From assembly GCF_054482525.1 (NCBI RefSeq), contig NZ_CM137006.1: DNA of 64,000 nt; one strand, written 5' to 3'. Positions 4,703 to 57,024 of this stretch are shown here, in pieces; positions within the stretch are counted from its first letter, which is position 1; every line of letters starts with the position of its first letter. Under the pieces are notes generated by a model, which did not search any database, was not told the origin of the DNA, and saw only the letters and a program-made list of their open reading frames with translations. A program made the position numbers and the translations under genes.

Positions 4703-7081
4703 ATGTCCAACAATGGCTCGTCACCGCTGGTGCTTTGGTATAACCAACTCGGCATGAATGATGTAGACAGGGTTGGGGGCAAAAATGCCTCCCTGGGTGA
4801 AATGATTACTAACCTTTCCGGAATGGGTGTTTCCGTTCCGAATGGTTTTGCCACAACCGCCGACGCGTTTAACCAGTTTCTGGACCAAAGCGGCGTAAAC
4901 CAGCGCATTTATGAACTGCTGGATAAAACGGATATTGACGATGTTACTCAGCTTGCGAAAGCGGGCGCGCAAATCCGCCAGTGGATTATCGACACTCCCT
5001 TCCAGCCTGAGCTGGAAAACGCCATCCGCGAAGCCTATGCACAGCTTTCCGCCGATGACGAAAACGCCTCGTTTGCGGTGCGTTCCTCCGCTACCGCAGA
5101 AGATATGCCGGACGCTTCTTTTGCCGGTCAGCAGGAAACTTTCCTCAACGTTCAGGGTTTTGACGCCGTTCTCGTGGCAGTGAAACATGTATTTGCTTCT
5201 CTGTTTAACGATCGCGCCATCTCTTATCGTGTGCACCAGGGTTACGATCACCGTGGCGTGGCGCTCTCCGCCGGTGTTCAGCGGATGGTGCGCTCCGACC
5301 TCGCATCTTCTGGCGTGATGTTCTCCATTGATACCGAATCCGGCTTTGACCAGGTGGTGTTTATCACTTCCGCATGGGGCCTTGGTGAAATGGTCGTGCA
5401 GGGTGCGGTTAACCCGGATGAGTTTTACGTGCACAAACCGACACTGGCGGCGAATCGCCCGGCTATCGTGCGCCGCACCATGGGGTCGAAAAAAATCCGC
5501 ATGGTTTACGCGCCGACCCAGGAGCACGGCAAGCAGGTTAAAATCGAAGACGTACCGCAGGAACAGCGTGACATCTTCTCGCTGACCAACGAAGAAGTGC
5601 AGGAACTGGCAAAACAGGCCGTACAAATTGAGAAACACTACGGTCGCCCAATGGATATTGAGTGGGCGAAAGATGGCCACACCGGCAAACTGTTCATTGT
5701 GCAGGCGCGTCCGGAAACCGTGCGCTCACGCGGTCAGGTCATGGAGCGTTATACGCTGCATTCACAGGGTAAGATTATCGCCGAAGGCCGTGCTATCGGT
5801 CATCGCATCGGCGCGGGTCCGGTGAAAGTCATCCATGACATCAGCGAAATGAACCGCATCGAACCTGGCGACGTGCTGGTTACTGACATGACCGACCCGG
5901 ACTGGGAACCGATCATGAAGAAGGCATCTGCCATCGTCACCAATCGTGGCGGTCGTACCTGTCACGCGGCGATCATCGCTCGTGAACTCGGCATTCCGGC
6001 GGTAGTGGGCTGTGGTGATGCAACAGAACGGATGAAAGACGGTGAGAACGTCACTGTTTCTTGTGCCGAAGGTGATACCGGTTATGTCTATGCGGAGTTG
6101 CTGGAATTTAGCGTGAAAAGCTCCAGCGTAGAAACGATGCCTGATCTGCCGTTGAAGGTGATGATGAACGTCGGTAACCCGGACCGTGCTTTCGACTTCG
6201 CCTGCCTGCCGAACGAAGGCGTCGGCCTTGCGCGTCTGGAATTTATCATCAACCGTATGATTGGCGTCCACCCACGCGCACTGCTTGAGTTTGACGATCA
6301 GGAACCGCAGTTGCAAAACGAAATCCGCGAGATGATGAAAGGTTTTGATTCTCCGCGTGAATTTTACGTTGGGCGTCTGACTGAAGGGATCGCGACGCTG
6401 GGTGCCGCGTTTTATCCGAAGCGCGTCATTGTCCGTCTCTCTGATTTTAAATCGAACGAATATGCCAACCTGGTCGGTGGTGAGCGTTACGAGCCAGATG
6501 AAGAGAACCCGATGCTCGGCTTCCGTGGCGCGGGCCGCTATGTTTCCGACAGCTTCCGCGACTGCTTCGCGCTGGAGTGTGAAGCAGTGAAACGTGTGCG
6601 CAACGACATGGGGCTGACCAACGTTGAGATCATGATCCCGTTCGTGCGTACCGTAGATCAGGCGAAAGCGGTGGTTGACGAACTGGCGCGTCAGGGGCTG
6701 AAACGTGGTGAGAACGGGCTGAAAATCATCATGATGTGTGAAATTCCGTCCAACGCCTTGCTGGCAGAGCAGTTCCTCGAATATTTCGACGGCTTCTCAA
6801 TTGGCTCAAACGACATGACACAGCTGGCGCTCGGTCTGGATCGTGACTCCGGCGTGGTGTCTGAACTGTTCGATGAGCGCAACGATGCGGTGAAAGCACT
6901 GCTGTCGATGGCGATTCGTGCCGCGAAGAAACAGGGCAAATATGTCGGGATTTGCGGTCAGGGTCCGTCCGACCACGAAGACTTTGCCGCATGGTTGATG
7001 GAAGAGGGGATCGATAGCCTGTCTCTGAACCCGGATACCGTGGTGCAAACCTGGTTAAGCCTGGCTGAACTGAAGAAATAA
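4703..7081 (+). CDS. ppsA: Phosphoenolpyruvate synthase PpsA, 792 aa
   Basis: 792-aa [37 protein letters not shown]; PEP-utilising enzyme family. Confidence 0.95.
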
Positions 7082-21200: not shown

Positions 21201-21337
21201 CGTGTAATGGCTGCATGAAATAAACAATAAAATATAAATAACATTATCAGCCTGCCGACGGCTTGAAGAGAGTCACAGTATCTTGTGCAACATTATTGGA
21301 AAGCGTGAGGGGCGAGGTAGCGAAGCGGAAAAATGTT

Positions 21338-21407
21338 AAAAAAAAGCCCATCGTGGGAGATGGGCAAAGACTACACACAGCAATTCGTTGTTTCACTCAG
21401 GGGATTT
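21338..21407. repeat. Left attachment-site direct repeat (duplicate of the rprA 3' end and terminator, 70 bp)
   Basis: Identical to 32979-33048: aaaaaaaagcccatcgtgggagatgggcaaagactacacacagcaattcgttgtttcactcaggggattt. Confidence 0.9.
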
Positions 21408-21424
21408 AAGTCATTGATTGATTT

Positions 21425-22054
21425 ATGGGTATGCGGTTTTTCGGCATAAACCAAATTAAGCAAGGCTTGAAAATGGACACACAAATTGCACACATATCGC
21501 ACACAAATAAAAAGGGGTATGTATGGCGCAAGCGTTATGAAAAACGCACGATTGAAATCATCCTACGCACCCGTGATAAATCAATTGCCATAAAAAGAGC
21601 GGCATCAATAACAATTCGCTATATGGAATTAAAATCACTTGACGTTCCATTTAAAGCAATGCTGGAAATGTTAAAAAAGTTTCGTGATGGTCTGATTACG
21701 TCACATGACATTGAGCGCTTAAGGTCGATTGCGATAGCTTCACAGGAAGCTCCACACGCCGCTGTAACCGCTTCGCCTATACAAAGTGTTGGCTATGATG
21801 TCAAAACCGCTCAGAAAGCCGCACAGGGGCATTCCCTTGGCGATGCTCAAAAAGTGTACTTTGGCGCCAACACCGAATGGAAAGAAAAAACCATCAAGGC
21901 TTATTCTGGTTGTATCGACCGCTTTATTTTATGGTGCGCTAATAAAAATATTCATACCGTGGAAGAAATAACGAAAGAGCATGTGATTTCATTTAAATCC
22001 AGCATGGATGAAGAAAAATTAGCCTCCATGACTAAATTTCGCATAATAATATGA
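21425..22054 (+). pseudogene. Tyrosine-integrase-like N-terminal fragment (core-binding/SAM-like region only, catalytic domain missing)
   Basis: 209-aa ORF; the segment KTIKAYSGCIDRFILWCANKNIHTVEEITKEHVISF resembles an integrase core-binding domain; no R..HxxR..Y catalytic region follows; sits next to the att repeat. Confidence 0.4.
21477..21509. repeat. Three tandem ~11-bp repeats (acacacaaatt / gcacacatatc / gcacacaaata), candidate integrase arm-type sites, left end
   Basis: Direct tandem repeats ~70 bp inside the left att repeat; a matching triplet lies ~70 bp inside the right repeat. Confidence 0.5.
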
Positions 22055-22362
22055 TTCGGGTTAGCATAACCAATACTTTTATTAAAGCCTATGTATGCAC
22101 CAATTTCTTTATACTTTAACTTAGTGAAATCTGAAATAATACTCAGTGGCTGCAATACGTTATGTCCATTGTGCGCCCCTTCATTAGCGCAAAATCCTGT
22201 ATTTGCAAACTGACCTTTATCACGCCAGATGAATCTATCAACGCCGCCACATACAGGACATGGTGTATGTTCATTTGGTTTAATATCAATTCCAAAATCA
22301 TTCATATGCACCAATGGATTCTTTTTAATATAATTATTCAAATCAGTAAAGAAATTAGCCAT
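21952..22362 (-). pseudogene. DNA primase zinc-ribbon domain fragment (Toprim and downstream domains absent)
   Basis: Motif HTPCPVCGGVDRFIWRD typical of primase Zn-ribbons; ORF stops soon after; its 3' end overlaps the convergent integrase fragment. Confidence 0.45.
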
Positions 22363-22681
22363 TATATTTGCTCCCGTATCGCCTTGCTGGATGCTTTGCA
22401 AAGAAATCAACGATATCTTGTTTGCGATACCAGATATAACCGTCTAATTCATGATGAATTTCTTGCGGAAATTCTTTAGGGTTAAAGCGTTTGGCGGCAT
22501 AAAACATTGGTTTAGTAACACCAGATAAAGCAATTGCATCATTGCCACACACAAGCCCTGTAAGTTGCACTTTCTGCGATTGTTCTTTTATCTGTGCCGC
22601 GATTAGCCTTTTATTCTCATTAACGTATTTTTCAATCTGTAGCTTACGCATTTTTTCGCGCATGTAATTTATATCGGTCAT
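22355..22681 (-). CDS. AlpA/Xis-like small DNA-binding protein, 108 aa
   Basis: C-terminal region FYAAKRFNPKEFPQE...YIWYRKQDIVDFF resembles the AlpA-family FPK...W..R..DI..W pattern. Confidence 0.45.
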   Translation of the reverse strand: MTDINYMREKMRKLQIEKYVNENKRLIAAQIKEQSQKVQLTGLVCGNDAIALSGVTKPMFYAAKRFNPKEFPQEIHHELDGYIWYRKQDIVDFFAKHPARRYGSKYNG

Positions 22682-22697
22682 TTTAGTATCCTATATA

Positions 22698-24200
22698 TTA
22701 AGTCATTATCTGTGCTGGTGGGGTAATGATATGAATTATCCCTCGATTATTCATAATGAATCTACATCGTTCAAGCCCTGTAATTGCTCGCTTTATATTA
22801 TTTGGCTGCATTTTATACTCAGTTTTTAATGCCTTCGTTAAATCGGATTCATGTACACAGCCATCAGCACTAAATTCCATTAACTGTATTATCATTTCTA
22901 AAACTCGTTCTTGTGCTGGTGCATTTTTCTTTTTTAACTCGCTCATATATGAGTCGTAAGCGAGAGTATTATTACGCGCAGCATTTTGAGTAAAATTAAC
23001 TCCTGCTTCATATGATTCTGCATTTACAGCGTTTTGCATTAATTGCTTATTTTGCTGTTGCGTTGTTAGTGGTTGCCGCTGTTGCGTGTGCATTTGCGCA
23101 TAATCATTTATCGGTGATTGCTGCATGATAAATGGTTCATCATTAGCTTGTTTGCGTTCTATTTTTCCTGCTGCAATTACTGGAGTTGGCCTATCAATAA
23201 ATACCAACGTCTTAGTATTGGCGTTTACCTGATAACCTTTTGCATTTTCTTCGGGATAATCGCATAATTCATTATTAATATCATGTAATTCACAGACGGT
23301 AATTCCGTTATCCGCTGTGCATAAATCAAATTGCATCACTGGTAATTTTGCAGCGCTACGGTTTTTTTCGATAGTGAGTGATACGGATAACCCAAAATCA
23401 TTACCCTGCATTTGCTCTAGTTTAATGACTGTATCAGAGTCATTTTTAAGGGTAATGGCTCCTTTCATACCTTTAGCCGCATCTTTGCCGCCGTGGTGAA
23501 CCATCAAGACAAAAGAATTTGTTTCTACTGCAATTCTTTTCAAAATCGAAATCAGCTTACGCATTGCAATAGCATCATTTTCATCAGGATTTTCCATATC
23601 CAAAATGGTTTTTCCATCAATGCTTTTTTTTGTGTAGTATGCCAAAAATGAAGAAAGCGTATCAAAACAAATGATGCCGCCTTTGTTATTGGTGATTTTA
23701 TTTACATCATTTATTATTCGATTCTGTATTTCTTTATCAAATAAGTTTATTTGTGGTGACAAGATGTGCATTCTGTCATTTTTAACGCCACTATTAAACT
23801 TATTAGACCACGCTGTATTTCGATCTTTGATTTCAACGCCTGTTTCACCATCAAAATAAAAAGCATGGCATTCTTTAGCAACTCGCAAACCAGCCCACGG
23901 TTTACCCTGTGCAACTCTGTTTAAAAGAGATAATGCCGCAAATGATTTGCCTGTGTTGGATTCACCATAAAGGAAGCCGACCTGTTTTCGGTTAAATAGA
24001 TTTTCAATTACAGGGCGTAACCGCTTTTCTGATTGCAATTGAATTTCAGCTAATTCAATTGCACACAATTCATCATTTATACCATCATATTCAGACCACT
24101 CACCGTAGTTGGCGGGTGCGTAATAATCAATCGCGAGAGTGTAATAATAATCAGGAATAGCAGACCAATCAATAAACATTCCTGTGCACATATCATTCAC
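22698..24200 (-). CDS. RecA-like (RepA/AAA_25-type) replication ATPase, 500 aa
   Basis: Walker A GESNTGKS near residue 80; hydrophobic strand plus HHGGKD Walker-B-like region; Q/N-rich linker and C-terminal domain; flanked by AlpA-like genes and iterons. Confidence 0.55.
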   Translation of the reverse strand: MNDMCTGMFIDWSAIPDYYYTLAIDYYAPANYGEWSEYDGINDELCAIELAEIQLQSEKRLRPVIENLFNRKQVGFLYGESNTGKSFAALSLLNRVAQGKPWAGLRVAKECHAFYFDGETGVEIKDRNTAWSNKFNSGVKNDRMHILSPQINLFDKEIQNRIINDVNKITNNKGGIICFDTLSSFLAYYTKKSIDGKTILDMENPDENDAIAMRKLISILKRIAVETNSFVLMVHHGGKDAAKGMKGAITLKNDSDTVIKLEQMQGNDFGLSVSLTIEKNRSAAKLPVMQFDLCTADNGITVCELHDINNELCDYPEENAKGYQVNANTKTLVFIDRPTPVIAAGKIERKQANDEPFIMQQSPINDYAQMHTQQRQPLTTQQQNKQLMQNAVNAESYEAGVNFTQNAARNNTLAYDSYMSELKKKNAPAQERVLEMIIQLMEFSADGCVHESDLTKALKTEYKMQPNNIKRAITGLERCRFIMNNRGIIHIITPPAQIMT

Positions 24201-24247
24201 CGTAATTTGGGTATTTAATTAAGAAAAATTCAATTACTTCTTCTTTT

Positions 24248-24400
24248 TTATATAGATGCTTTGTTTTTTTTGTTTTTATCGCAAGTAACTAAATGCTCTT
24301 TTGGAAATTCTTTAGGGTTAAAACGTTTAGCCATATAAAAAGCGGTTGAGCCAATTTTAGCCAAAAGTTGTGCTTCACGAGGTGTAATTAAGTCGCTCAT
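24248..24400 (-). pseudogene. Second AlpA-like fragment (50 codons), partial duplicate of the 22355-22681 gene
   Basis: Translation MSDLITPREAQLLAKIGSTAFYMAKRFNPKEFPKEH... shares the FY-AKRFNPKEFP motif with the downstream AlpA-like gene; weak RBS; not in the ORF track (<60 aa). Confidence 0.3.
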
Positions 24401-24750
24401 GTAGGGTATCTCTTAGATGTATTCTGAGTGCGGTCATGGTAGGCGAGGGGAGGAATAGCGGCAAGCATTACCGGATATAGTAAGCACTACCAGCTAAAGT
24501 CTAACTAACTGTCAACAGATTGAGGCTAAAACCACTGTATGTAAATTCAATTTTAAAAATTAAAAATCATTCTGGCTTAACTAATTATGCTCAATTTAAA
24601 TTGAATCTGATAATAAAAAGAATCAATAAAATGGATTTAGTGATTTTTAGTTGGACGAAATCGTTCATTTTATGTGCATTGCTCGCTGGTGATAATTCAA
24701 CCAATCCATTCAACCTATTCGAATGGGTGGTGAATTTTTGACCGAATTAA

Positions 24751-24920
24751 ATTCACCTGAATATTCACCGAATGATTCACCTGAATCATTCAGCCCTTCA
24801 TTCACCACGAAACCCAGGCGCGGCGGGGCTTACAGGCCGATTCATTCACCTGAATATTCACCTGAATATTCACCTGAATTATTCAACCAAAAATTCACCT
24901 TCATATTCACTCATTCACCT
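24751..24920. repeat. Iteron array: two clusters of three 12-bp tandem repeats (ATTCACCTGAAT) plus degenerate copies
   Basis: Units at 24751, 24763, 24775 and at 24844, 24856, 24868 with further TTCACC copies; lies upstream of the Rep ATPase operon. Confidence 0.6.
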
Positions 24921-24957
24921 CTCTATAAATAAGCATTGGAATGCTTTTTATAGAGGT
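24921..24957. other. Long near-perfect inverted repeat (ctctataaataagcatt gg aatgctttttatagag), hairpin or operator
   Basis: About 16-bp arms with a 2-nt loop, T-run on one side; lies between the iterons and the ner-like gene. Confidence 0.4.
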
Positions 24958-25236
24958 TGATGAATGAAGGTCGTTCAAGTGAATGAACTGTGAGTTGGGT
25001 AAACCCCTAGGGGTTGGGGGTGTTGTCGATTTGTGGTAAATTCCTTCTGCCAGCGTGAAAAAGGCGCTGGTGGGGATTTGCAGCCCCAAACAAACAAAAC
25101 CATTGGCAAGGAATTGCCGATGCGCGTGCGCACGTCAGTTATGGCGGTCACGGCGAGGGAGTCGAAAGGCTCGCCAGTTTTGTTTGTTTGCTGGTACTGC
25201 AAACCTCGTCGTGATCGTCACCACGGGGATGCATGT

Positions 25237-25488
25237 ATGCAGGAAACAGACTGGCACAAAGCGGATATTCTTGCCTCTTTAAAGAAAAAGAAAATCAGCA
25301 TGGCGGGATTATCCCGTGAACATGGTTTATCAAGTAGCACGTTGCTAAATGCACTTAGTAGAGAATGGCCTAGAGGCGAATTAATTATTGCTAATGCAAT
25401 TGGTGTGTCACCTCAAGAAATATGGCCTTCTAGGTATTTTGAAAAAGATGGCTCTCCAAAAAATCGTGTGATTCGTAAACCTGTTTAA
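25237..25488 (+). CDS. Ner/Nlp (SfsB)-family HTH DNA-binding regulator, ~83 aa
   Basis: MQETDWHKADILASLKKKKISMAGLSREHGLSSSTLLNALSREWPRGELIIANAIGVSPQEIWPSRY closely resembles Ner/Nlp; I prefer the internal ATG at 25237 over the 151-aa ORF start. Confidence 0.6.
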   Translation: MQETDWHKADILASLKKKKISMAGLSREHGLSSSTLLNALSREWPRGELIIANAIGVSPQEIWPSRYFEKDGSPKNRVIRKPV

Positions 25489-25705
25489 ATAAGTCAATGC
25501 GTCTCTGATTAAAAGGGGCGCATTTTTGTTTTTACTGACTTGTTGCAATGTGGGATATGTTGCGCACGTGTGTGCGATAGTTGTTAATTGTTTTTTGTAC
25601 TAGTTAACAAATACGAATTTTCTGAGGGTGCTATTTTGGGTTTTAGCTGCGGCTTCGCCTTGCTGCCCTTCGGGCTGGTGGTGCAAGAAGAATGTTTGAA
25701 AACTT

Positions 25706-25751
25706 CCTTTTCTTTGCTTCACCAGCCCCGTAGGGGCGTGAGCGTAGCGAA
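25706..25751. repeat. 46-bp direct repeat, copy 1 (ccttttctttgcttcaccagccccgtaggggcgtgagcgtagcgaa)
   Basis: Identical to 29912-29957; contains a gcccc-gta-ggggc hairpin; ~100 bp upstream of the 383-aa gene. Confidence 0.85.
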
Positions 25752-25849
25752 CCTAATCACTTTGATTTTGACACATATCGGTTCTATCATTTTCAGGAAA
25801 ATCATCATAGAATTATATAAAACATACGATTTTTAAGGTGAATTTTTAA

Positions 25850-27001
25850 ATGCACGAGAAAGCGCAAACAAAAATAAAAGATACTATTAGAGAAATACTA
25901 ATCACTCCAGCAATCGCTTTTACTGGTCGTGCAGGTCATTTTGATTTTTCATTATATGAAGTTTTAGCAAATGAGCTTAACAAAAGAAAGATAAAGTTTA
26001 AAATTGATAAATTATCATGTTGGATTATTTTTGATGGCGCAAAAAAACATTACTTTCAAGATAAATCAATTACTGACGCACAAGCGATAAATGATTTTGT
26101 GGATACGTTATGTAGTATTTACTGTGAAACACCTATGGATTACTCCATCGATTTTCACTTTAGAAATTTAAAAATCGATATCAACCCGATTGATTATGAG
26201 TTTGTTTCAATTAGAGCGGGTGAGGATATTGGTATTGGTTTGTTCGCTGAAAAAGAAAAGTATGCGATTGCGAGCATTAAAAAGAATGGCTATCTTTCAG
26301 GTGGTTATCCTAGCTCATTTATAAAATCGATTTTGCAAGATTTGAAAATCTTCATTTTTTTGATTAAAAGCATTAATTTGATTAAGACAGGAAAAACCAA
26401 TTTAGCATCCACGTTATTTCAATCGATGTCCGGTCATGCTGACACAATTAAGATTGATTGCGTTAATGTTAAATATCCTTGGATGAATAGCAGTGTCCAT
26501 ATTTCAGAGTCGGTAGGGAAATTTTTACACAACTTTATCTTCAATTATGAATTTGAAGAAGGCTACATTATAGAAAAAATAGATCATTCGCTTCAGCTAA
26601 TGAATGCAATAGTAAAAGATGAGTCAAAAGAAGCCTTGCGTATCAAGGCTGCAATTGATTGGTTGGTGCAATCTGAAATCACTGATGATGAAACCATGTC
26701 TTTTATTCAAATTTGCATGGGGCTTGAATCAATTTTTGGTGATGATGATTATGAGGGTGGCCTAACAAACATACTATCTGATAGATGCGCCTACTTAATA
26801 GGGAATAAAATTAAAGAGAGGAGATTTATAAAGGACACATTTAAAAAAATATATCAAGTTAGGTCAAAGATAGTGCATGGCGTAAGAAATCATTTATCAG
26901 ATGATGAATTATATTTTAGGCATTTAGCATATTCATATTTAGAGCGTTCTATTCTAAAAGAAATTCAAAATTTAGACCTGCAATCCCATCAGGCGACGTG
27001 A
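25850..27001 (+). CDS. Hypothetical protein with C-terminal HEPN-like R-x4-H-G motif, 383 aa
   Basis: AGGTGA RBS 8 nt upstream; C-terminal ...KKIYQVRSKIVHGVRNH matches the R-x4-6-H signature of HEPN RNases; strongly AT-rich. Confidence 0.4.
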   Translation: MHEKAQTKIKDTIREILITPAIAFTGRAGHFDFSLYEVLANELNKRKIKFKIDKLSCWIIFDGAKKHYFQDKSITDAQAINDFVDTLCSIYCETPMDYSIDFHFRNLKIDINPIDYEFVSIRAGEDIGIGLFAEKEKYAIASIKKNGYLSGGYPSSFIKSILQDLKIFIFLIKSINLIKTGKTNLASTLFQSMSGHADTIKIDCVNVKYPWMNSSVHISESVGKFLHNFIFNYEFEEGYIIEKIDHSLQLMNAIVKDESKEALRIKAAIDWLVQSEITDDETMSFIQICMGLESIFGDDDYEGGLTNILSDRCAYLIGNKIKERRFIKDTFKKIYQVRSKIVHGVRNHLSDDELYFRHLAYSYLERSILKEIQNLDLQSHQAT

Positions 27002-27236
27002 AGCTTGTGCGCTTCATTATGGGGCTAGCCGCCATCAGGCAAGGCGATTGCATGTCTTTGCGCTTCGTCGCCTCCTGATGCGTTCTGTGAAGATGTCGAT
27101 CATTTAGTGAGCGCGGCGGATGTTGCTGATGGATAGTGTGGATGCAACTGAACCATACCGCGAAAAGTGGCAGGATTGCGCCGGAATCGTACCGCTAGCA
27201 GGTGTTGAGTGTAAGAAGTAGTGATTGGGTGAAATG

Positions 27237-27275
27237 AAGATAGAAGGCCGCATAGAGGCATACAACTAGCCTTAT
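27237..27275 (-). terminator. Hairpin downstream of the lipoprotein gene (candidate terminator)
   Basis: ccgcata...tatgcgg stem followed, on the minus strand, by a T-rich tract. Confidence 0.35.
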
Positions 27276-27288
27276 GCGGTTGGCTGGT

Positions 27289-27732
27289 TCAGCACTGGTA
27301 AAAGTTGGCGAGGTGTGGAATATGGCTGGTGGTGGTTTCGAAAGCCTTGAGGCGTCCATTTTTATCTTTTTTCAAGTAGAGCATTTTTAGTGCTGGTGGA
27401 AATACTGAATCCATAATTCCATAAACTCCCACATTTTCGTTTTCTTCTTTAAGCATTCCCCAATATTGATAACCATTTAATGCGCTATCATCAATGCCCG
27501 TTCCAACGCGCTTAATGTGGGCAAGATATCGGCCTTTTATCGTAAAGCTAAATGATTCATCACGTTCATTTGTGCAAGTGTAAAATCCATCATCGCTTTC
27601 ATTTATAACTTCAGATGCTTCACGATTTAATGAGTACTTGTCTAAGTTGTTTATGATGTCACTTCGCTGTGCGCATCCAGTCAAATTTAGAATGGTAAAA
27701 ATTAGTACAGAAGATGCAAGATATTTGTTCAT
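27289..27732 (-). CDS. Predicted lipoprotein, ~147 aa
   Basis: N-terminus MNKYLASSVLIFTILNLTGC carries a signal peptide with lipobox LTGC; internal ATG at 27732 preferred. Confidence 0.55.
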   Translation of the reverse strand: MNKYLASSVLIFTILNLTGCAQRSDIINNLDKYSLNREASEVINESDDGFYTCTNERDESFSFTIKGRYLAHIKRVGTGIDDSALNGYQYWGMLKEENENVGVYGIMDSVFPPALKMLYLKKDKNGRLKAFETTTSHIPHLANFYQC

Positions 27733-27818
27733 TTTGATTATCCATATGAAAAGCAAGGTACTTAGATTAAATTACCCTGCTTAAGCAGTAATTAGCGGTT
27801 CCGTTAATAGAGGGTAGA

Positions 27819-28178
27819 TTATTTGTTAATTTGTTTTTTAGTGTGTGAGATAAAATTTCTAAGTAAATCTTTTTCAATTACAATTTCACATTTTAGGTTT
27901 TGGCTATCGACCGCATCAATTCTATCAAACCAAAACATTAATTCCTGGCTTGCATCGCATTTACGTTTGAATTTAATTGCCCTGCCGAATTTTTCACTTA
28001 AAGAATCATCATCACATAAAAAATAAATTTTATTATTAATGGTGATTTGAATTAAATATGTCTTCCTCGTTAGGTAATCTAACCTTTCGTTAGCTTTCAG
28101 TAAGTTAGCTTCAGCTTGTTTGATGCGTATAAGAGCATCCTCTTTGCTTAAAGGGGATGTATTGACAGACTTGATCAT
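27819..28178 (-). CDS. Hypothetical protein, 119 aa, upstream partner of the lipoprotein
   Basis: AAGGA RBS 8 nt upstream of the ATG; co-oriented with the lipoprotein gene, 86-bp gap. Confidence 0.5.
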   Translation of the reverse strand: MIKSVNTSPLSKEDALIRIKQAEANLLKANERLDYLTRKTYLIQITINNKIYFLCDDDSLSEKFGRAIKFKRKCDASQELMFWFDRIDAVDSQNLKCEIVIEKDLLRNFISHTKKQINK

Positions 28179-28287
28179 AATTTAATCCTTTGGTTAAGAT
28201 TCATCAAAAATATGCCATAAATAGCCTTGAAGGTTGTGTGGAATACATATTATGATAGCTTCATCTAATCAGCAAGGGGAATAATAG

Positions 28288-28443
28288 ATGCCTTCTAAAC
28301 GTGTTATATGCTCACTTGATGAGCAAGAGTTAGATATTCTCGAAAAATATAAATTACATTATAAAAATATGCATGGCGTAAAATTAAACAGAACGGCAAT
28401 TATCAAAATGTTGATTAGTCGTCTATCAAAAGAAATTCAATAA
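28288..28443 (+). CDS. Ribbon-helix-helix (Arc/CopG-like) small DNA-binding protein, 51 aa
   Basis: MPSKRVICSLDEQELDILEKYKLHYKNMHGVKLNRTAIIKMLISRLSKEIQ shows a beta-strand/helix/helix pattern; GGGGA RBS; divergent from the 27819-28178 operon; below ORF-track length cutoff. Confidence 0.45.
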   Translation: MPSKRVICSLDEQELDILEKYKLHYKNMHGVKLNRTAIIKMLISRLSKEIQ

Positions 28444-28495
28444 TAATTCTAATTACCAATTAATTTAAACTTCACATAATTAAAGAGGCAACTCT

Positions 28496-28810
28496 ATGCA
28501 CACTCTTTTTTCTAAATTTAAAAACAGGAAAATTAAAATGTATCAACCACGTTATAAAAGCAGAATGATTGACGATAATGAATATAATCAGGTGCTTCAA
28601 TCGAGAATGCAAAATCTTTTAAATCAATATAATAATGAGGTTTCAAACTTAACCCGCATTGGTGTTACAAATTTGGGTTTCGGCCGATGGGATAATGGAG
28701 AGAGCAAAATCAATAACCACGTTAATAAAGTAAGTGAGACTTTGGAAAAGATGCAATCTACGCAAGCCTTGATTGATGCTCTTGCAAATGAAATTACACA
28801 AACTAATTAA
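28496..28810 (+). CDS. Hypothetical protein, 104 aa
   Basis: AAGAGG RBS 8 nt upstream; no recognisable motif. Confidence 0.45.
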   Translation: MHTLFSKFKNRKIKMYQPRYKSRMIDDNEYNQVLQSRMQNLLNQYNNEVSNLTRIGVTNLGFGRWDNGESKINNHVNKVSETLEKMQSTQALIDALANEITQTN

Positions 28811-28894
28811 TCGAATGGGGGATGCTTTAAATGGTAATCGCAATCATGGTTGTAATGTTTTGGGCTTTCCTGATTCTTAAAGAGGAAATGAAAT

Positions 28895-29179
28895 ATGGTT
28901 AAATTTGGAGTGTTTTACCATCATGCATGGGGTGATGGTAAAAAGGAAATCCCGCCACCTGATTTAAATTACATCCGAACCGATCCACATAAAAATAATG
29001 AAATTGCTTTAGATGTTTTTGATTCAAGAATGGACGCACAAAAACGCGCTGATTTACTAAATTCACGCATGGCAAAAAATCAAACTGGTCAGCATTATGT
29101 TGCGCCAACAACGCAAGAAACCAAAACGGCTCAAAAGCGCTTTAAGTTTCCTTGTACTAGCATTTATGGGTGGAAATGA
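28895..29179 (+). CDS. Hypothetical protein, 94 aa (paralog family A)
   Basis: AGAGGA RBS; N-terminus MVKFGVFYHHAWGDG is similar to the next gene's N-terminus. Confidence 0.45.
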   Translation: MVKFGVFYHHAWGDGKKEIPPPDLNYIRTDPHKNNEIALDVFDSRMDAQKRADLLNSRMAKNQTGQHYVAPTTQETKTAQKRFKFPCTSIYGWK

Positions 29180-29181
29180 AA

Positions 29182-29556
29182 ATGAGTAAACAATTCGGTG
29201 TTTTCTTTTGGCGAAAAGGTGACGCTATTACCGATATCCCGTCAGATAAAAATGTTGCAAATCGCGGAGTAAAGCCTAAGCGCATTTTTTCAGATTATAT
29301 TGATGGAATGCGATATAAAGATAAAATGAATGCAACAATTCCAGCGGCGCAAAAAGGTAAATATGAATATGTATTAGCGGAAATTGTTGAACCAGACCCG
29401 AACAATACAAAGGTGTTGTTTAAATCTGGAAATTTAACAGAAGCATTAAGGGCGAAGCGACAAACAACCGAACAAATCAACCGAAATAAAATTGATGCAA
29501 TGATTAAAGAAGCCGCACACGATTACCTTTACACTATTACAGGAATGGAAAAATGA
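29182..29556 (+). CDS. Hypothetical protein, ~124 aa (paralog family A)
   Basis: N-terminus MSKQFGVFFWRKGDA parallels the upstream gene; GGTGGA RBS; start at 29182 preferred over 29170. Confidence 0.45.
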   Translation: MSKQFGVFFWRKGDAITDIPSDKNVANRGVKPKRIFSDYIDGMRYKDKMNATIPAAQKGKYEYVLAEIVEPDPNNTKVLFKSGNLTEALRAKRQTTEQINRNKIDAMIKEAAHDYLYTITGMEK

Positions 29557-29852
29557 TTATTGACGAGCGATTTATTAAATGGTCAATGGTGCTGGTGGAG
29601 GCCGGAAAGCCATCACCCAGCCTCGCGGGGCTTTATAAAGGAAACACTAAAGGATTAATCTTTTATAAAACACGTGAATTGGCATCAAATGCAGCCACTA
29701 AACGGAATGAGCAATTAGCAGGAACTAAATCAACCAGCCGATTTAAAATCATTAAATTGCATGACGCAGAAGCACAACAGAAACATGATTTTCAGTTAAA
29801 ACAGGAACGCCAGCGCCGCGATGCACGCCATATGCGCCGATTTGGTTTCTAA
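29553..29852 (+). CDS. Hypothetical basic protein, 99 aa
   Basis: 4-bp ATGA overlap with the upstream gene suggests translational coupling; Lys/Arg-rich C-terminus. Confidence 0.4.
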   Translation: MIIDERFIKWSMVLVEAGKPSPSLAGLYKGNTKGLIFYKTRELASNAATKRNEQLAGTKSTSRFKIIKLHDAEAQQKHDFQLKQERQRRDARHMRRFGF

Positions 29853-29911
29853 ATATAACTCAATAACTCAACCAATGGTGATGTTAAAGAATAAGGTGGC
29901 CTTAAATTTCA

Positions 29912-29957
29912 CCTTTTCTTTGCTTCACCAGCCCCGTAGGGGCGTGAGCGTAGCGAA
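29912..29957. repeat. 46-bp direct repeat, copy 2
   Basis: Identical to 25706-25751; 37 bp upstream of the tape-measure-like gene. Confidence 0.85.
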
Positions 29958-29993
29958 ATAAGTAACATTAATATCAAATCAGAGGTAAATAAA

Positions 29994-31982
29994 ATGGCAG
30001 GTGAAAATGCTCAATTGGGCTTTTCCGTCGATACATCGGAAGTGGAAACAGCATCAAAAAGGCTTAATGAATTAGCTAAATCAGCGCAAGGGGCGGCTGA
30101 TTCGGCTGGCAAATTATCAGATTCATTTGAGGAAAGTATGAAGGGTGTTAATTCATCAATTACTTCCAATCATCAGGCTATGCGCGAATTAACGGTAATG
30201 ATGCACGAAGCAATGTCTGGTAATTGGTCGCGCTTGCGTGGTTCTGCAATGATTATGGGCGGCGCATTGGGATTTGGTGGATTAACTAGCGGTGCGGTAG
30301 TTGGTGGAATTACGCTTGTTTCGGAAGGCATTGAATCGCTAATTGAAGGAATGCGAGAAGCTCAAAAAGCAGAAACTGAATTAAATAATTCTGCTGTAAT
30401 TACAGCAGATGTAAGCCTTTTAAATAGTGATTATGTTGATTCACTTACTATTGGTTATGAGAAATTAGGCTATTCAGCAACACAAGCAAAAGGCATGATT
30501 GCAGCGTTAAGTAATGCGGGTATGTTTGGTGATGAATTTAGTGTTGCAGGTAAACAAATTGCCGCACTATCTAAAGCGTTAGGCGGTAATTCAGACGAAC
30601 AAAAAAAATTAGCTGGTCAATTTGGTGGCTTGTATTCTGACCCGCTAGGACACGTTAACGAATTTTTCCAAGTAACAAACGGATGGATTACCAAAACCGA
30701 ACAAAACCGAATTAATGCGGCTGAACAATCGCATAATTCAGCACAAGCTGAAATGGCTATGCAAGAAGCGCTATTAGATGTTTATAAGCGTCAAACCGAT
30801 ATGCTACAGCTTAAAGCCTATTTGGAAACTAACGCCGCTACATATTCAGCCTTTCAGACGCGCGAACAATTCGGCAGCGCATGGGGTAAGGGCGAAAAAG
30901 AAAAGGCAGACGCATTTATCAAGCAATATGACGAGCGCCAGCAATCATTTAATCAGGGCGTTGAAAAGCTAAAAGGAAGCATTCACGAAACAGGACGCCA
31001 GATAAGGGAAAATGTAGAAGAATTTAATAAAGGAATGCATCCCCATAAAGTGCATACACACCACGGATTAACAGCAATTGAGAAAGCAGCTAAACAATTG
31101 GTGACCTACCAAACCCAAATTAAACAGGCTGGTTTGCAATTTGACCAGCAAATTAATTCAATTGGTGATTCAGTAAATAATGCGTGGAGTAATAAATTAT
31201 ACTCTTATTCAATGTCTTCTGACCAGAATGATTTTGCAAACCGAATTGAACAAATCAATGAACAATTCGACCGTATGCGCGAAAATGTAGACCGTTTGGC
31301 GCTGCAACATCATAAATCAATTGGTTCAAAAGAATATGTTGAAATGTTCCAAAAAATCGAATTAGGGCGCAAAAACGTATTGGCTGAAAACGTTGCTGGA
31401 TTTAATGAAATGGAGTCATTGCAGCATTCAGCGCTGGCGGGAATGGATGAGGGATGGATTAAATACCAGAAGCAGGTTAATGATGTTGCAAGCCAATCAG
31501 AGAAAGTTTTTGATACGGCTGTTGAGGGAATGACAAATTCATTAACTGATTTCTTTACAACTGGTGAGGCTGGTTGGACTAATTTTGTAAAATCAATCGC
31601 AACAATCACTGAAAAATACATGGTTCAAGATTGGATTGTTGAGCCGCTAGCAGGATTAGTAAAAGGGGGGATTAGCTCGCTATTTTCATCAAATCCATTG
31701 AGTTCAACGGCTAACACTTTTGCCGTTCCCGATATTCCAAAATTGGGCGCAACTCATTTAGGAGGCGGTCTAGGTTCGACCGCACCAGTTATCAATATCA
31801 CCATTAATGACAATGGCAACAAAGGCGGCGTTGATAGCAATGTTAGCGGCACAACAGGGCAAGTACAAAAAATGGGGGCGGCGCTAGATAAATTCCTGCA
31901 AAACTATATCAAAGAGCAAAACGTAAAATCCAACCGTCAGGGCGGGTTAAACAAAACAATGGGGAACTGGTCGACAAGATAA
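29994..31982 (+). CDS. Phage tail tape-measure protein homolog (lambda gpH-like), 662 aa, orphan
   Basis: Glycine-rich hydrophobic segment MIMGGALGFGGLTSGAVVGGITLV near the N-terminus, long helical middle, C-terminal FDTAVEGMTNSLTDFFTTGEAGWTNFVKSI and ...VINITINDNG matching, from memory, the lambda H C-terminal region; AGAGGT RBS. Confidence 0.6.
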   Translation: MAGENAQLGFSVDTSEVETASKRLNELAKSAQGAADSAGKLSDSFEESMKGVNSSITSNHQAMRELTVMMHEAMSGNWSRLRGSAMIMGGALGFGGLTSGAVVGGITLVSEGIESLIEGMREAQKAETELNNSAVITADVSLLNSDYVDSLTIGYEKLGYSATQAKGMIAALSNAGMFGDEFSVAGKQIAALSKALGGNSDEQKKLAGQFGGLYSDPLGHVNEFFQVTNGWITKTEQNRINAAEQSHNSAQAEMAMQEALLDVYKRQTDMLQLKAYLETNAATYSAFQTREQFGSAWGKGEKEKADAFIKQYDERQQSFNQGVEKLKGSIHETGRQIRENVEEFNKGMHPHKVHTHHGLTAIEKAAKQLVTYQTQIKQAGLQFDQQINSIGDSVNNAWSNKLYSYSMSSDQNDFANRIEQINEQFDRMRENVDRLALQHHKSIGSKEYVEMFQKIELGRKNVLAENVAGFNEMESLQHSALAGMDEGWIKYQKQVNDVASQSEKVFDTAVEGMTNSLTDFFTTGEAGWTNFVKSIATITEKYMVQDWIVEPLAGLVKGGISSLFSSNPLSSTANTFAVPDIPKLGATHLGGGLGSTAPVINITINDNGNKGGVDSNVSGTTGQVQKMGAALDKFLQNYIKEQNVKSNRQGGLNKTMGNWSTR

Positions 31983-32043
31983 TATTATGTTGCTTAGTAA
32001 GTCTAAACTTTACGCCCTAATTAGGGCGTTTTATTTAAAAAAG

Positions 32044-32661
32044 TTAATTTGCTGTATTTTCTCTCATCTTTCTAAGTTCTGGCAATACTTTCTTATAGAA
32101 TTTCGTAGTGGAATCAGCGCAGTAGTTTTGCAGATACTTATAGTTTTCTTCAAATTTAGGGAGATCTTTAGCTACCGTCAATTGCTTTGGTAAAGTTCCG
32201 GTAGCATCATCGGTTATATCAAATGTTATTGAATTATGTTTTCGATCTTCATTAACTTTTTTTAAAGTGGCAACAATAGGGCTTTTATCCATAGAACCAT
32301 CTATTAGTTGGCGAACTTGAAACTTCCTTGGGATTATAAAATTAATTACTGACGGAGGTTCACTATTTAATGTTATATTCCAAGTTATTGGCATAGCATC
32401 ACATAAACCTTCAGATATTATTTCACCATCAATTGAACCATCAGAATTGGCGATAAATTGTATTATAACAAGTGGTTGATCTTTATTTAAGCCAAGATCT
32501 CCACTATTTATTATATATTCAGCGTCTGTCGACCATTTGCCTGTTAGAAATTCTTTTTGATAAAGTGCTTCATTTATTTCACCTCTATATGGTAAATATA
32601 GACCTATAGCACCAATTGCAACACCTAATACAGTGCATATTGTTGTTATTCGTCCACTCAT
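32044..32661 (-). CDS. Membrane-anchored hypothetical protein, 205 aa
   Basis: N-terminal hydrophobic helix ITTICTVLGVAIGAIGLYLPY; AT-rich; at the island edge. Confidence 0.45.
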   Translation of the reverse strand: MSGRITTICTVLGVAIGAIGLYLPYRGEINEALYQKEFLTGKWSTDAEYIINSGDLGLNKDQPLVIIQFIANSDGSIDGEIISEGLCDAMPITWNITLNSEPPSVINFIIPRKFQVRQLIDGSMDKSPIVATLKKVNEDRKHNSITFDITDDATGTLPKQLTVAKDLPKFEENYKYLQNYCADSTTKFYKKVLPELRKMRENTAN

Positions 32662-32875
32662 ATCACACTCGTTATCTTATCCTTGTTGTAGTTAAGCATT
32701 TTATTTTATTTTTTTATTGTGAAAATGGCTAGTTTTAGTTGGGTCTTGCGCTGAATCTAACGAGTGCTTACCCCGTGAAGTGATTTATGATTAAAGTTCG
32801 TTTTGTTTTTGGTTAAAAAATGAACATGTGAGTGCTTTGGAAAATTTCTGTAACACTCACCTGATTTACGCTGGT

Positions 32876-32909
32876 AGCACACAAATGGTACACAAACGGC
32901 ACACAGGTA
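32876..32909. repeat. Three tandem ~11-bp repeats (agcacacaaatgg / tacacaaacgg / cacacaggtaa), candidate integrase arm-type sites, right end
   Basis: Mirrors the left-end triplet; same orientation; ~70 bp inside the right att repeat. Confidence 0.5.
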
Positions 32910-32978
32910 ATCGCATACCTTTAATGACCTAATTTCTTCAAGCCCCTGCATTGCTGCGTTTGTCGTGATTTTCGGCAT

Positions 32979-33048
32979 AAAAAAAAGCCCATCGTGGGAG
33001 ATGGGCAAAGACTACACACAGCAATTCGTTGTTTCACTCAGGGGATTT
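32979..33048. repeat. Right attachment-site direct repeat (3' 70 nt of intact rprA)
   Basis: Identical to 21338-21407. Confidence 0.9.
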
Positions 33049-33084
33049 CCATGCTTATAAATCAATATGTTGATTTATAACCGT
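32979..33084 (-). ncRNA. rprA: Small regulatory RNA RprA (activator of rpoS translation)
   Basis: Minus-strand sequence ACGGTTATAAATCAACATATTGATTTATAAGCATGGAAATCCCCTGAGTGAAACAACGAATTGCTGTGTGTAGTCTTTGCCCATCTCCCACGATGGGCTTTTTTTT matches RprA from memory, including the intrinsic terminator; lies between ydiK and ydiL. Confidence 0.85.
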
Positions 33085-56866: not shown

Positions 56867-56943
56867 TGGTGCGTCCGAGTGGACTCGAACCACCGACCCC
56901 CACCATGTCAAGGTGGTGCTCTAACCAACTGAGCTACGGACGC
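56867..56943 (-). tRNA. valV: tRNA-Val (GAC)
   Basis: Reverse complement reads GCGTCCGTAGCTCAGTTGGTTAGAGCACCACCTTGACATGGTGGGGGTCGGTGGTTCGAGTCCACTCGGACGCACCA, a cloverleaf with anticodon GAC and encoded CCA. Confidence 0.95.
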
Positions 56944-56947
56944 AGGA

Positions 56948-57024
56948 TGGTGCGTTCAATTGGACTCGAACCAACGACCCCCACCATGTCAAGGTGGTGC
57001 TCTAACCAACTGAGCTATGAACGC
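56948..57024 (-). tRNA. valW: tRNA-Val (GAC), second tandem copy
   Basis: Reverse complement reads GCGTTCATAGCTCAGTTGGTTAGAGCACCACCTTGACATGGTGGGGGTCGTTGGTTCGAGTCCAATTGAACGCACCA. Confidence 0.95.

Follow-up and report, generated by a model that had tools for sequence, protein, structure and literature searches.

A duplicated hairpin element in an rprA-borne island of Escherichia coli as a possible shared cis-regulatory module

The 46-mer CCTTTTCTTTGCTTCACCAGCCCCGTAGGGGCGTGAGCGTAGCGAA occurs twice, without a mismatch and both times on the plus strand, in the window, i.e., the 64,000-nt stretch of DNA analysed here, which belongs to the E. coli chromosome around ydiL-rprA-ydiK. Neither occurrence stands by itself: each is the 3' half of a palindromic element of 95-130 nt, in which a long imperfect hairpin is followed by a small GC hairpin and by the invariant tail GTGAGCGTAGCGAAC. 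The explanation that we tentatively prefer is a duplicated cis-regulatory module, consisting of an insulating or processing hairpin and an operator-like box, by which two payload units would be placed under common control and in which the identity of the copies would be kept by gene conversion.

The repeat is real and non-random. No further match with up to three mismatches was found in the 64-kb window, and the chance expectation was a mean of 0.00 in 100 shuffles. The initial annotation had described a perfect 46-bp direct repeat with 4,160 bp between its copies, lying close upstream of a HEPN-like and a tape-measure-like gene and having a gcccc-gta-ggggc hairpin in each copy, and all of this was borne out: the start-to-start spacing is 4206 bp, the first copy (copy B) ends 98 nt before the ATG of a 383-aa HEPN-annotated gene (25850), the second (copy C) ends 36 nt before the ATG of a 662-aa tape-measure-like gene (29994), and the hairpin is found in both. 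What had escaped it is that the exact repeat makes up just the 3' part of a longer element able to form a hairpin, that weak similarity between the copies runs ~15 nt past the 46-mers (61 nt at 89%), and that the 4.2-kb block it noted is part of an 11.6-kb island with 71-bp repeats at its ends. In the preferred explanation, the direct-repeat geometry would follow from two such units lying in the same orientation.

Island setting and anatomy of the element

The low-GC block at 21337-33048 is an integrative island of 11.6 kb, bracketed by a perfect 71-bp direct repeat that corresponds to the 3' end of the small RNA gene rprA (Table 1). The intact rprA (118.8 bits) is found at the right end, and a hybrid pseudo-copy (81.4 bits, 21336-21456) at the left end. 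The island contains a truncated integrase, a primase, a helicase, ATTCACC iterons, a C4/CI-type RNA, a Ner-like HTH gene, the HEPN-annotated gene, small genes and the tape-measure-like gene; Pfam and PADLOC searches with the HEPN-like protein and with the 99-aa and 119-aa proteins gave no informative match. Compared with the island of FREC5, only the first 209 aa of the integrase and a zinc-finger fragment of the primase are left (21425-22410); a single deletion took out the 3' end of int together with a further copy of the element (copy A), a GIY-YIG gene and the larger part of the primase. This island is probably immobile.

Table 1. Features of the island and of the two copies of the element (positions in the window)
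Feature	Position	Strand	Remarks
Left island end, 71-bp repeat	21337-21407		3' end of rprA
Right island end, 71-bp repeat	32978-33048		inside intact rprA (32977-33084, minus)
C4/CI-type antisense RNA gene	25137-25225	+	just 5' of HTH gene; Rfam RF01695, 65.8 bits
Ner-like HTH gene (PF13693), 83 aa	25237-25488	+	PHROG 769 transcriptional repressor, E = 1.8e-30
Intrinsic-terminator-like hairpin and T run	25496-25534	+	end of C4-HTH unit, 5' of copy B
Copy B, full element	25641-25755	+	covariance model R1 116.3 bits; RNA fold -49.6 kcal/mol, z = -3.3
Copy B, left flank	25645-25664	+	decayed inverted copy of the tail
Copy B, small hairpin	25665-25675	+	GCCCTTCGGGC
Copy B, 5' arm	25675-25692	+	CTGGTGGTGCAAGAAGAA; followed by loop, then 46-mer; Chi at 25674-25681
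46-mer, copy 1	25706-25751	+	exact match; invariant half in 16-copy alignment
46-mer copy 1, pyrimidine-rich 3' arm	25706-25725	+	
46-mer copy 1, GC mini-hairpin	25725-25737	+	GCCCC-GTA-GGGGC
46-mer copy 1, tail	25738-25752	+	GTGAGC-GTA-GCGAA(C)
Sigma-70-like promoter, TTGATT-17-TATCAT	25762-25790	+	10 nt past copy B tail; consensus match only; presumed promoter of HEPN-like gene
HEPN domain-containing payload gene after copy B	25850-27001	+	RefSeq annotation
Copy C element, 5' of tape-measure-like gene	29875-29958	+	RNA fold -32.2 kcal/mol, z = -3.9; R1 24.4 bits
Copy C, 5' arm	29875-29899	+	ATGGTGATGTTAAAGAATAAGGTGG
46-mer, copy 2	29912-29957	+	exact match
Tape-measure-like gene (Tape_meas_lam_C) after copy C	29994-31982	+	PHROG tape-measure families; PF09718 on orthologues

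From 5' to 3', the element has a purine-rich 5' arm and, beyond a loop, a pyrimidine-rich 3' arm, followed by the GC hairpin GCCCC-GTA-GGGGC and the tail GTGAGC-GTA-GCGAAC. Copies B and C have 5' arms of unrelated sequence, each of which nevertheless pairs with the same 3' arm. The left side of copy B additionally bears a decayed inverted tail and a mini-hairpin, copy C is without a left tail, and the element of a metagenomic relative (L028) is an almost perfect palindrome of ~130 nt with inverted tails at both ends. In islands with an intact integrase, the third copy, copy A, directly follows the int stop codon. The covariance model R1 of the element found only two sites in the 64-kb window, and an Rfam search of the region 24400-30100 (E <= 1) returned only the C4 RNA and a chance snoRNA, so that the element could not be assigned to a known RNA family at that threshold.

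All copies fold as long hairpins, with z values from -2.8 to -9.5, and in 13 of the 16 copies the fold of the plus strand is more stable than that of the minus strand. Approximately 28 G.U pairs have their G on the 5' arm; these pairs favour the plus-strand fold, which points to selection on the plus strand as a single strand. In RNAalifold, the topology of copy B is C4-like, with an outer stem around two hairpins.

Several other features of the window were observed beside the element. The ATTCACC(TGAAT) iteron cluster at 24751-24911, between the replication genes and the C4-like RNA, is probably the origin of the island; the island of S10, which has a different helicase, carries other repeats, AAACCGCATGGCGTCGGG, in place of these iterons. 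The loop of the C4/CI-type RNA, GUUUUGUUUGUUUG, is complementary to 25087-25103, ~35 nt 5' of its gene, a site that resembles the upstream target repeat of the P4 and P1 immunity RNAs; no clear downstream target of the island RNA was found. The stretch 27002-27288, 3' of the HEPN-like gene, is GC-rich (~50%) and non-coding, is 95% identical in a Phytobacter island without that gene and is kept in the island L026; it has no Rfam match and may be a small RNA or a regulatory region. Six Chi octamers (GCTGGTGG) are present, all on the plus strand (22714, 25066, 25674, 27325, 27392 and 29591), against 0.09 expected in an 11.6-kb island of 37% GC (dinucleotide shuffles; maximum 2 in 2000). Chi ranks 4th among the 8-mers of the island and related islands are similarly rich in it, and this one-directional richness suggests selection for protection from RecBCD. 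Far from the island, two ordinary tandem tRNA-Val(GAC) genes are found on the minus strand at 56867-57024.

Distribution, conservation and exchange between copies

Among 5426 complete E. coli genomes, the element and the island were present in five, at one to three places in each and always inside the rprA island. Three of these five islands are identical to that of the window, that of FREC5 is 88% identical, and that of S10 is ~83% identical over 30% of the island. A sensitive BLAST search found the element in none of 50,697 phage records and none of 72,556 plasmid records. By pattern scans and protein-guided look-ups, islands were also found in Phytobacter, Salmonella, Citrobacter, Enterobacter and metagenomes, and their locus was rprA/ydiK wherever enough of the flanking chromosome was recovered. 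All copies are confined to three positions of the island, which are orthologous between islands, and none was found elsewhere. As far as these sequences indicate, the element is private to a family of P4/PICI-like islands of 8-15 kb in the 3' end of rprA. The possibility raised beforehand that the 46-mer could be a widespread REP-like repeat is excluded by this distribution, because REP/BIME-type repeats would be expected in hundreds of dispersed copies. Literature searches on the sequence of the tail, on attachment at rprA and on satellites that carry HEPN and tape-measure genes yielded nothing about the island or the element, and this phage-satellite-like family is apparently undescribed so far.

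An 18-mer of the tail, GGGCGTGAGCGTAGCGAA, was found exactly in intergenic hairpin repeats of metagenome-assembled genomes of Phycisphaerae, Thermoguttaceae, Kiritimatiellae and Armatimonadetes (L004, L007-L010 and L012-L015), where it often forms the hairpin loop and lies beside small GCCC-GAA-GGGC hairpins; these look-alike repeats have no Rfam family. Such occurrences in unrelated phyla would suit a selfish, MITE-like miniature palindrome that had spread within the island and had no function for it, and the same may be said of the two to three copies per island, of the inversions of the centre and of the nearly perfect palindrome in L028, the inverted tails of which are terminal inverted repeats; in the B copies the left tail is decayed. 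A decaying element of this kind, however, would not be expected to show strong conservation and co-variation, and its copies would hardly be confined to the same orthologous positions in all islands and genera, with none outside the island in the 5426 E. coli genomes. Moreover, neither a transposase nor an evident target-site duplication (none around the L028 palindrome) was found, and we consider a selfish origin without function quite improbable.

In an alignment of 16 copies, the 3' half of the element is nearly invariant and the 5' half variable. Among 29 copies from five genera, 27 have the 20-nt tail region without any change, and the other two differ only at the middle base of a G-N-A. 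The 5' half appears to be held by pairing instead: in 11 orthologous B copies, 97% of the cells at paired positions were paired and three pairs were changed on both sides, a result as high as this being reached in none of 500 shuffles (RNAalifold and pair counts). The support from covariation is modest, as the counts are small and the sequences closely related. Cognate arms paired better than non-cognate ones, both for C copies (-20.0 vs. -16.9 kcal/mol) and for B copies (-22.4 vs. -18.0 kcal/mol), and the best pairing of the copy C 5' arm among the chimeras was with its cognate 3' arm.

Within one island, copies B and C share island-specific variants of the 3' arm. This holds for the window island (TTTGCTTCACCAG), for L024 (TTTACCCACCAG) and for Salmonella L035 (TTTGCCCTACCAG); in S10, Phytobacter and Citrobacter the variants of B and C are near-identical, with one or two differences (S10 and Phytobacter, TTCACCCACCAG). 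The differing 5' arms are adjusted to pair with the 3'-arm variant of each island. Judged from these alignments, the copies evolve in concert, with compensation in the 5' arms. Direct traces of exchange were seen as well. Copies A and B of FREC5 share 99% identity over a 94-nt stretch that includes the flank, which indicates conversion, and copy A of S10 has its centre in the opposite orientation to that of copy B, the two being 98% complementary over 51 nt.

Recombination between copies was one of the roles first proposed for the repeat, in the form of sites delimiting an exchangeable cassette. For the block as a whole this proposal is not supported: ~15 related islands have their genes in the same order from B to C, similarity does not break at copy C, and no deletion form joining the HTH gene, one element and the tape-measure-like gene was seen. 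Its sound part concerns the sequence exchange between copies described above and a variable slot directly after the copy B tail, where HEPN-like alleles of 38-42% identity or unrelated genes are found between flanking genes of 78-99% identity. In the HEPN-like protein the N-terminal ~250 aa (25850-26650) are hypervariable, and the C-terminal third is conserved, as are the neighbours; DNA similarity resumes near 26600-26650, inside the gene. A variable sensor joined to a conserved effector would be expected to look like this. Integron attC-like cassette borders were rejected, as only the first gene between B and C varies. Arm sites of the integrase were likewise rejected, since no tail-like motifs are present near the att arms. 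L026, with int, a hybrid element and the HEPN-like gene, was considered as an A x B deletion, but its integrase is only 48% identical and the arrangement may be native.

A version in which the copies would delimit or seed exchangeable cargo through homologous recombination or gene conversion, aided by Chi in the 5' arm and possibly by the neighbouring GIY-YIG nuclease, is in agreement with the start of the slot at or just after the copy B tail in Phytobacter, L030 and L026, with the conversion in FREC5 and the inverted centre in S10, and with the presence of Chi in almost every B copy, on the 5' arm, in an island that is dense in Chi. In the Hafnia island L039 (2019-2598), moreover, a GIY-YIG gene is located between the inverted arms of copy A (26 nt, 88% complementary, 528 nt apart), as if inside a hairpin loop. 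As the main role of the repeat this version is nevertheless unlikely in our view. The right edge of the slot is within the HEPN-like gene and has no repeat, a B x C deletion was never seen, and no dedicated recombinase was found, the only recombinase being the tyrosine integrase of the island, which is truncated in the window; recombination alone would also leave unaccounted for the co-variation of the arms, the invariant tail and the analogous repeat of unrelated sequence in Hafnia.

Possible functions of the hairpin and of the invariant box

As regards the module that we prefer, the 46-mer would be the sequence-constrained half of a cis-acting leader placed directly 5' of payload units on the plus strand. 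Every tail-bearing copy is followed by a plus-strand gene, which is the HEPN-like gene, the tape-measure-like gene or a different payload, for instance a 133-aa gene in Phytobacter or, in Citrobacter, an additional gene of 145 aa that follows copy A. Where only the convergent GIY-YIG gene follows, copy A is without a tail, and copy C is absent from Enterobacter hormaechei L036 (9300-10750), where a 454-aa minus-strand gene replaces the tape-measure-like gene. A promoter or operator present in duplicate and a signal for processing or termination had also been among the roles first proposed, and by position, conservation and the Hafnia repeat they fit better than the cassette. An intrinsic terminator was rejected, since the scan lists none at either copy and the tail is followed by CCTAATCA or ATAAGTAA and not by a U run. 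We infer from the sequences that the element would be transcribed, that its hairpin would have a role and that the HTH protein would bind the box.

The first part of the module, the long hairpin, would have been selected as a single-stranded structure of the plus strand, most plausibly RNA, and could shield the following unit from transcription arriving from upstream or mark a site of processing or stability. It may be asked whether such an RNA-level signal would suffice without any dedicated DNA-binding protein, either as an RNase III/RNase E processing or stability hairpin between cistrons, of the kind known from T7 early mRNA, or as a nut/put-like antitermination site read in the nascent transcript. 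The plus-strand bias of the G.U pairs and the co-varying arms agree with this, as does the position of copy C, which lies in a presumably transcribed 141-nt space between genes that cannot accommodate a promoter 5' of the Shine-Dalgarno sequence. The small GC hairpins with G-N-A or GNRA loops are reminiscent of boxB, and just 5' of copy C a 99-aa protein (29553-29852) is encoded whose arginine-rich end, QERQRRDARHMRRFGF, is of the kind found in RNA-binding antiterminators. On the other side, no boxA-like conserved sequence was found, the region 5' of the mini-hairpin and the arms varying between islands (a nut-type site was rejected for this reason), a match in Rfam is absent, and the E. coli-type and Hafnia tails have kept the sequence CGTGAGCG rather than a common hairpin. 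A predicted terminator also precedes copy B; located between this terminator and a predicted promoter, copy B may be little transcribed, which weakens an RNA-level role for this copy. The TTGACAC region is kept in orthologous B copies. A purely RNA-level signal is somewhat unlikely on balance.

The second part of the preferred module, the invariant box of ~20 nt, GGGGCGTGAGCGTAGCGAAC, would be read by its sequence. The Hafnia alvei island L039 is informative in this respect. It has the same architecture at a different integration site and an HTH protein of 71% identity, and it contains a 49-nt direct repeat (96% identity) with inverted partner arms, one copy of which follows the HTH gene and the other of which lies 26 nt ahead of the tape-measure-like ATG. 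The arms of this repeat are unrelated in sequence to those of the E. coli element and R1 misses it, yet its tail, GCGTGAGCGCAGAAC, shares the core CGTGAGCG, and the two tails are the only sites of this core in the L039 locus. By this comparison, the architecture is conserved beyond sequence homology, and the core box by its sequence and not by a common hairpin. In the same island, the outer stem of the C4-like RNA (6909-6989) has, on its 5' strand, an exact match to the 12-mer GTGAGCGTAGCG of the E. coli-type tail; together with the C4-like topology of copy B, this may reflect shared ancestry or a shared binding protein.

The most plausible reader of the box would be the Ner-like HTH protein, which is the most conserved protein of the island (90-99% identical across islands) and 59% identical to Ner of phage D108. 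The D108 genome has the sequence CCGTGAGCTAC-N8-GTAGCTCACGG just 5' of ner, and these ner-proximal inverted repeats are reportedly the Ner operator. The heptamer CGTGAGC is common to the tail and the D108 repeat, the full 11-mer CCGTGAGCTAC aligning only with a 1-nt gap; the shared heptamer is suggestive of the Ner-like HTH protein as a candidate reader. The D108-type geometry, with two inverted half-sites ~8 bp apart over a promoter, is not found in the island, where each copy has a single box; in the B copies the inverted partner of the tail is ~100 nt away and decayed. No tail-like site was found near the promoter of the HTH gene itself, and no repeated CGTGAGCG near the Ner homologues of Citrobacter freundii, Pectobacterium, Xenorhabdus and Photorhabdus. 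Moreover, the Ner proteins of Mu and D108 have different specificities, and therefore an identity of 59% has no predictive value for the site. The 18-mer in unrelated phyla, where a link to Ner is absent, may instead point to an intrinsic structural role of the motif. An RfaH ops-like element was considered for the tail as well and rejected, because the resemblance to GGCGGTAGCGTG requires that the two critical bases be swapped.

G-N-A triloop mini-hairpins are of a kind known as very stable in DNA, and the island encodes a primase and a helicase; the element could then be conceived as a single-stranded DNA signal for their use, either a priming site or a region like crr of P4, the more so as GTTCAC repeats beside copy A resemble the P4 iteron core. 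This is very improbable. Islands that differ in their initiator (AAA_25 vs. DUF3987) and in their origin repeats have the same element and the same tail, and both persist in Phytobacter, where the replication module is missing; crr or origin iterons were also rejected as an identity of the tail itself, which is the same in the window island and in S10 and differs from the repeats of both.

If the Ner-like HTH protein does read the box, the HEPN-like and tape-measure-like genes would come under one common control. Gene conversion between the copies would keep their perfect identity and occasionally give hybrid or rearranged copies, and as a by-product of this exchange the junction after copy B would become a favoured breakpoint for the exchange of payload alleles. 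One may go further and imagine an undescribed control circuit in these islands at rprA, and at another site in Hafnia, in which a single reader, Ner-like or other, acts on the box behind a co-evolving hairpin and co-switches a HEPN-annotated anti-phage effector with a tape-measure-like protein, the Chi-bearing hairpin junction serving as a hot spot for swaps of effector alleles. As a complete circuit this is a speculative extrapolation from sequence, and its being right in all parts would be improbable.

Relation to known elements and significance

The element is of a known kind, the intergenic palindromic cis element, and what is new is its being private to one island family. The enterobacterial ERIC/IRU and neisserial Correia/NEMIS repeats are likewise imperfect palindromes of ~100-130 nt with inverted ends, are intergenic and form long hairpins in transcripts, and they alter mRNA stability or supply parts of promoters. 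ERIC and Correia repeats are found in tens to hundreds of copies across the chromosome, whereas the island element has two to three copies per island at fixed orthologous positions and an invariant box on one side. The nutL/nutR sites of lambda and the putL/putR sites of HK022 are similarly two near-identical short elements, each 5' of a transcription unit and with small GC-rich hairpins; the island element, known from sequence alone, differs by the lack of a boxA or a known N-like factor, by loops of 3-4 nt instead of 5 and by one copy following a predicted terminator and not a promoter.

The inverted repeat next to ner in D108 has an identical core, CGTGAGC, and a Ner-family HTH gene adjoins in both systems, but in D108 two inverted 11-bp half-sites with an 8-bp spacer lie over the early promoters, and the island has a single box behind the hairpin, at two or three places apart from the promoter of the HTH gene. 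The seqA/seqC repeats of P4 and the a/b repeats of P1 are also direct repeats in a satellite or phage with a C4/CI-type RNA. The 46-mer differs from those targets in that it is not complementary to the C4-like loop, whose complement is at 25087-25103; as a target of this RNA the 46-mer was also rejected because the best duplexes were at 25071-25110 and 31131, with neither 46-mer among the top matches. The RNase III sites in the early region of T7 are repeated, partly sequence-conserved imperfect hairpins between the cistrons of a phage-type genome, a likeness drawn from sequence, and the island element has mini-hairpins and an invariant tail in addition.

The element offers a compact example of a cis element whose halves are under different rules, one bound to its sequence and the other to its pairing, and the invariant 20-nt box can serve as a specific marker for finding these islands in genomes of Enterobacterales. 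If the preferred reading is correct, the repeat would provide a handle on the co-regulation of the hypervariable HEPN-annotated gene and the tape-measure-like payload gene in an uncharacterised satellite-like island, and it would mark the place where new payload alleles enter the island.
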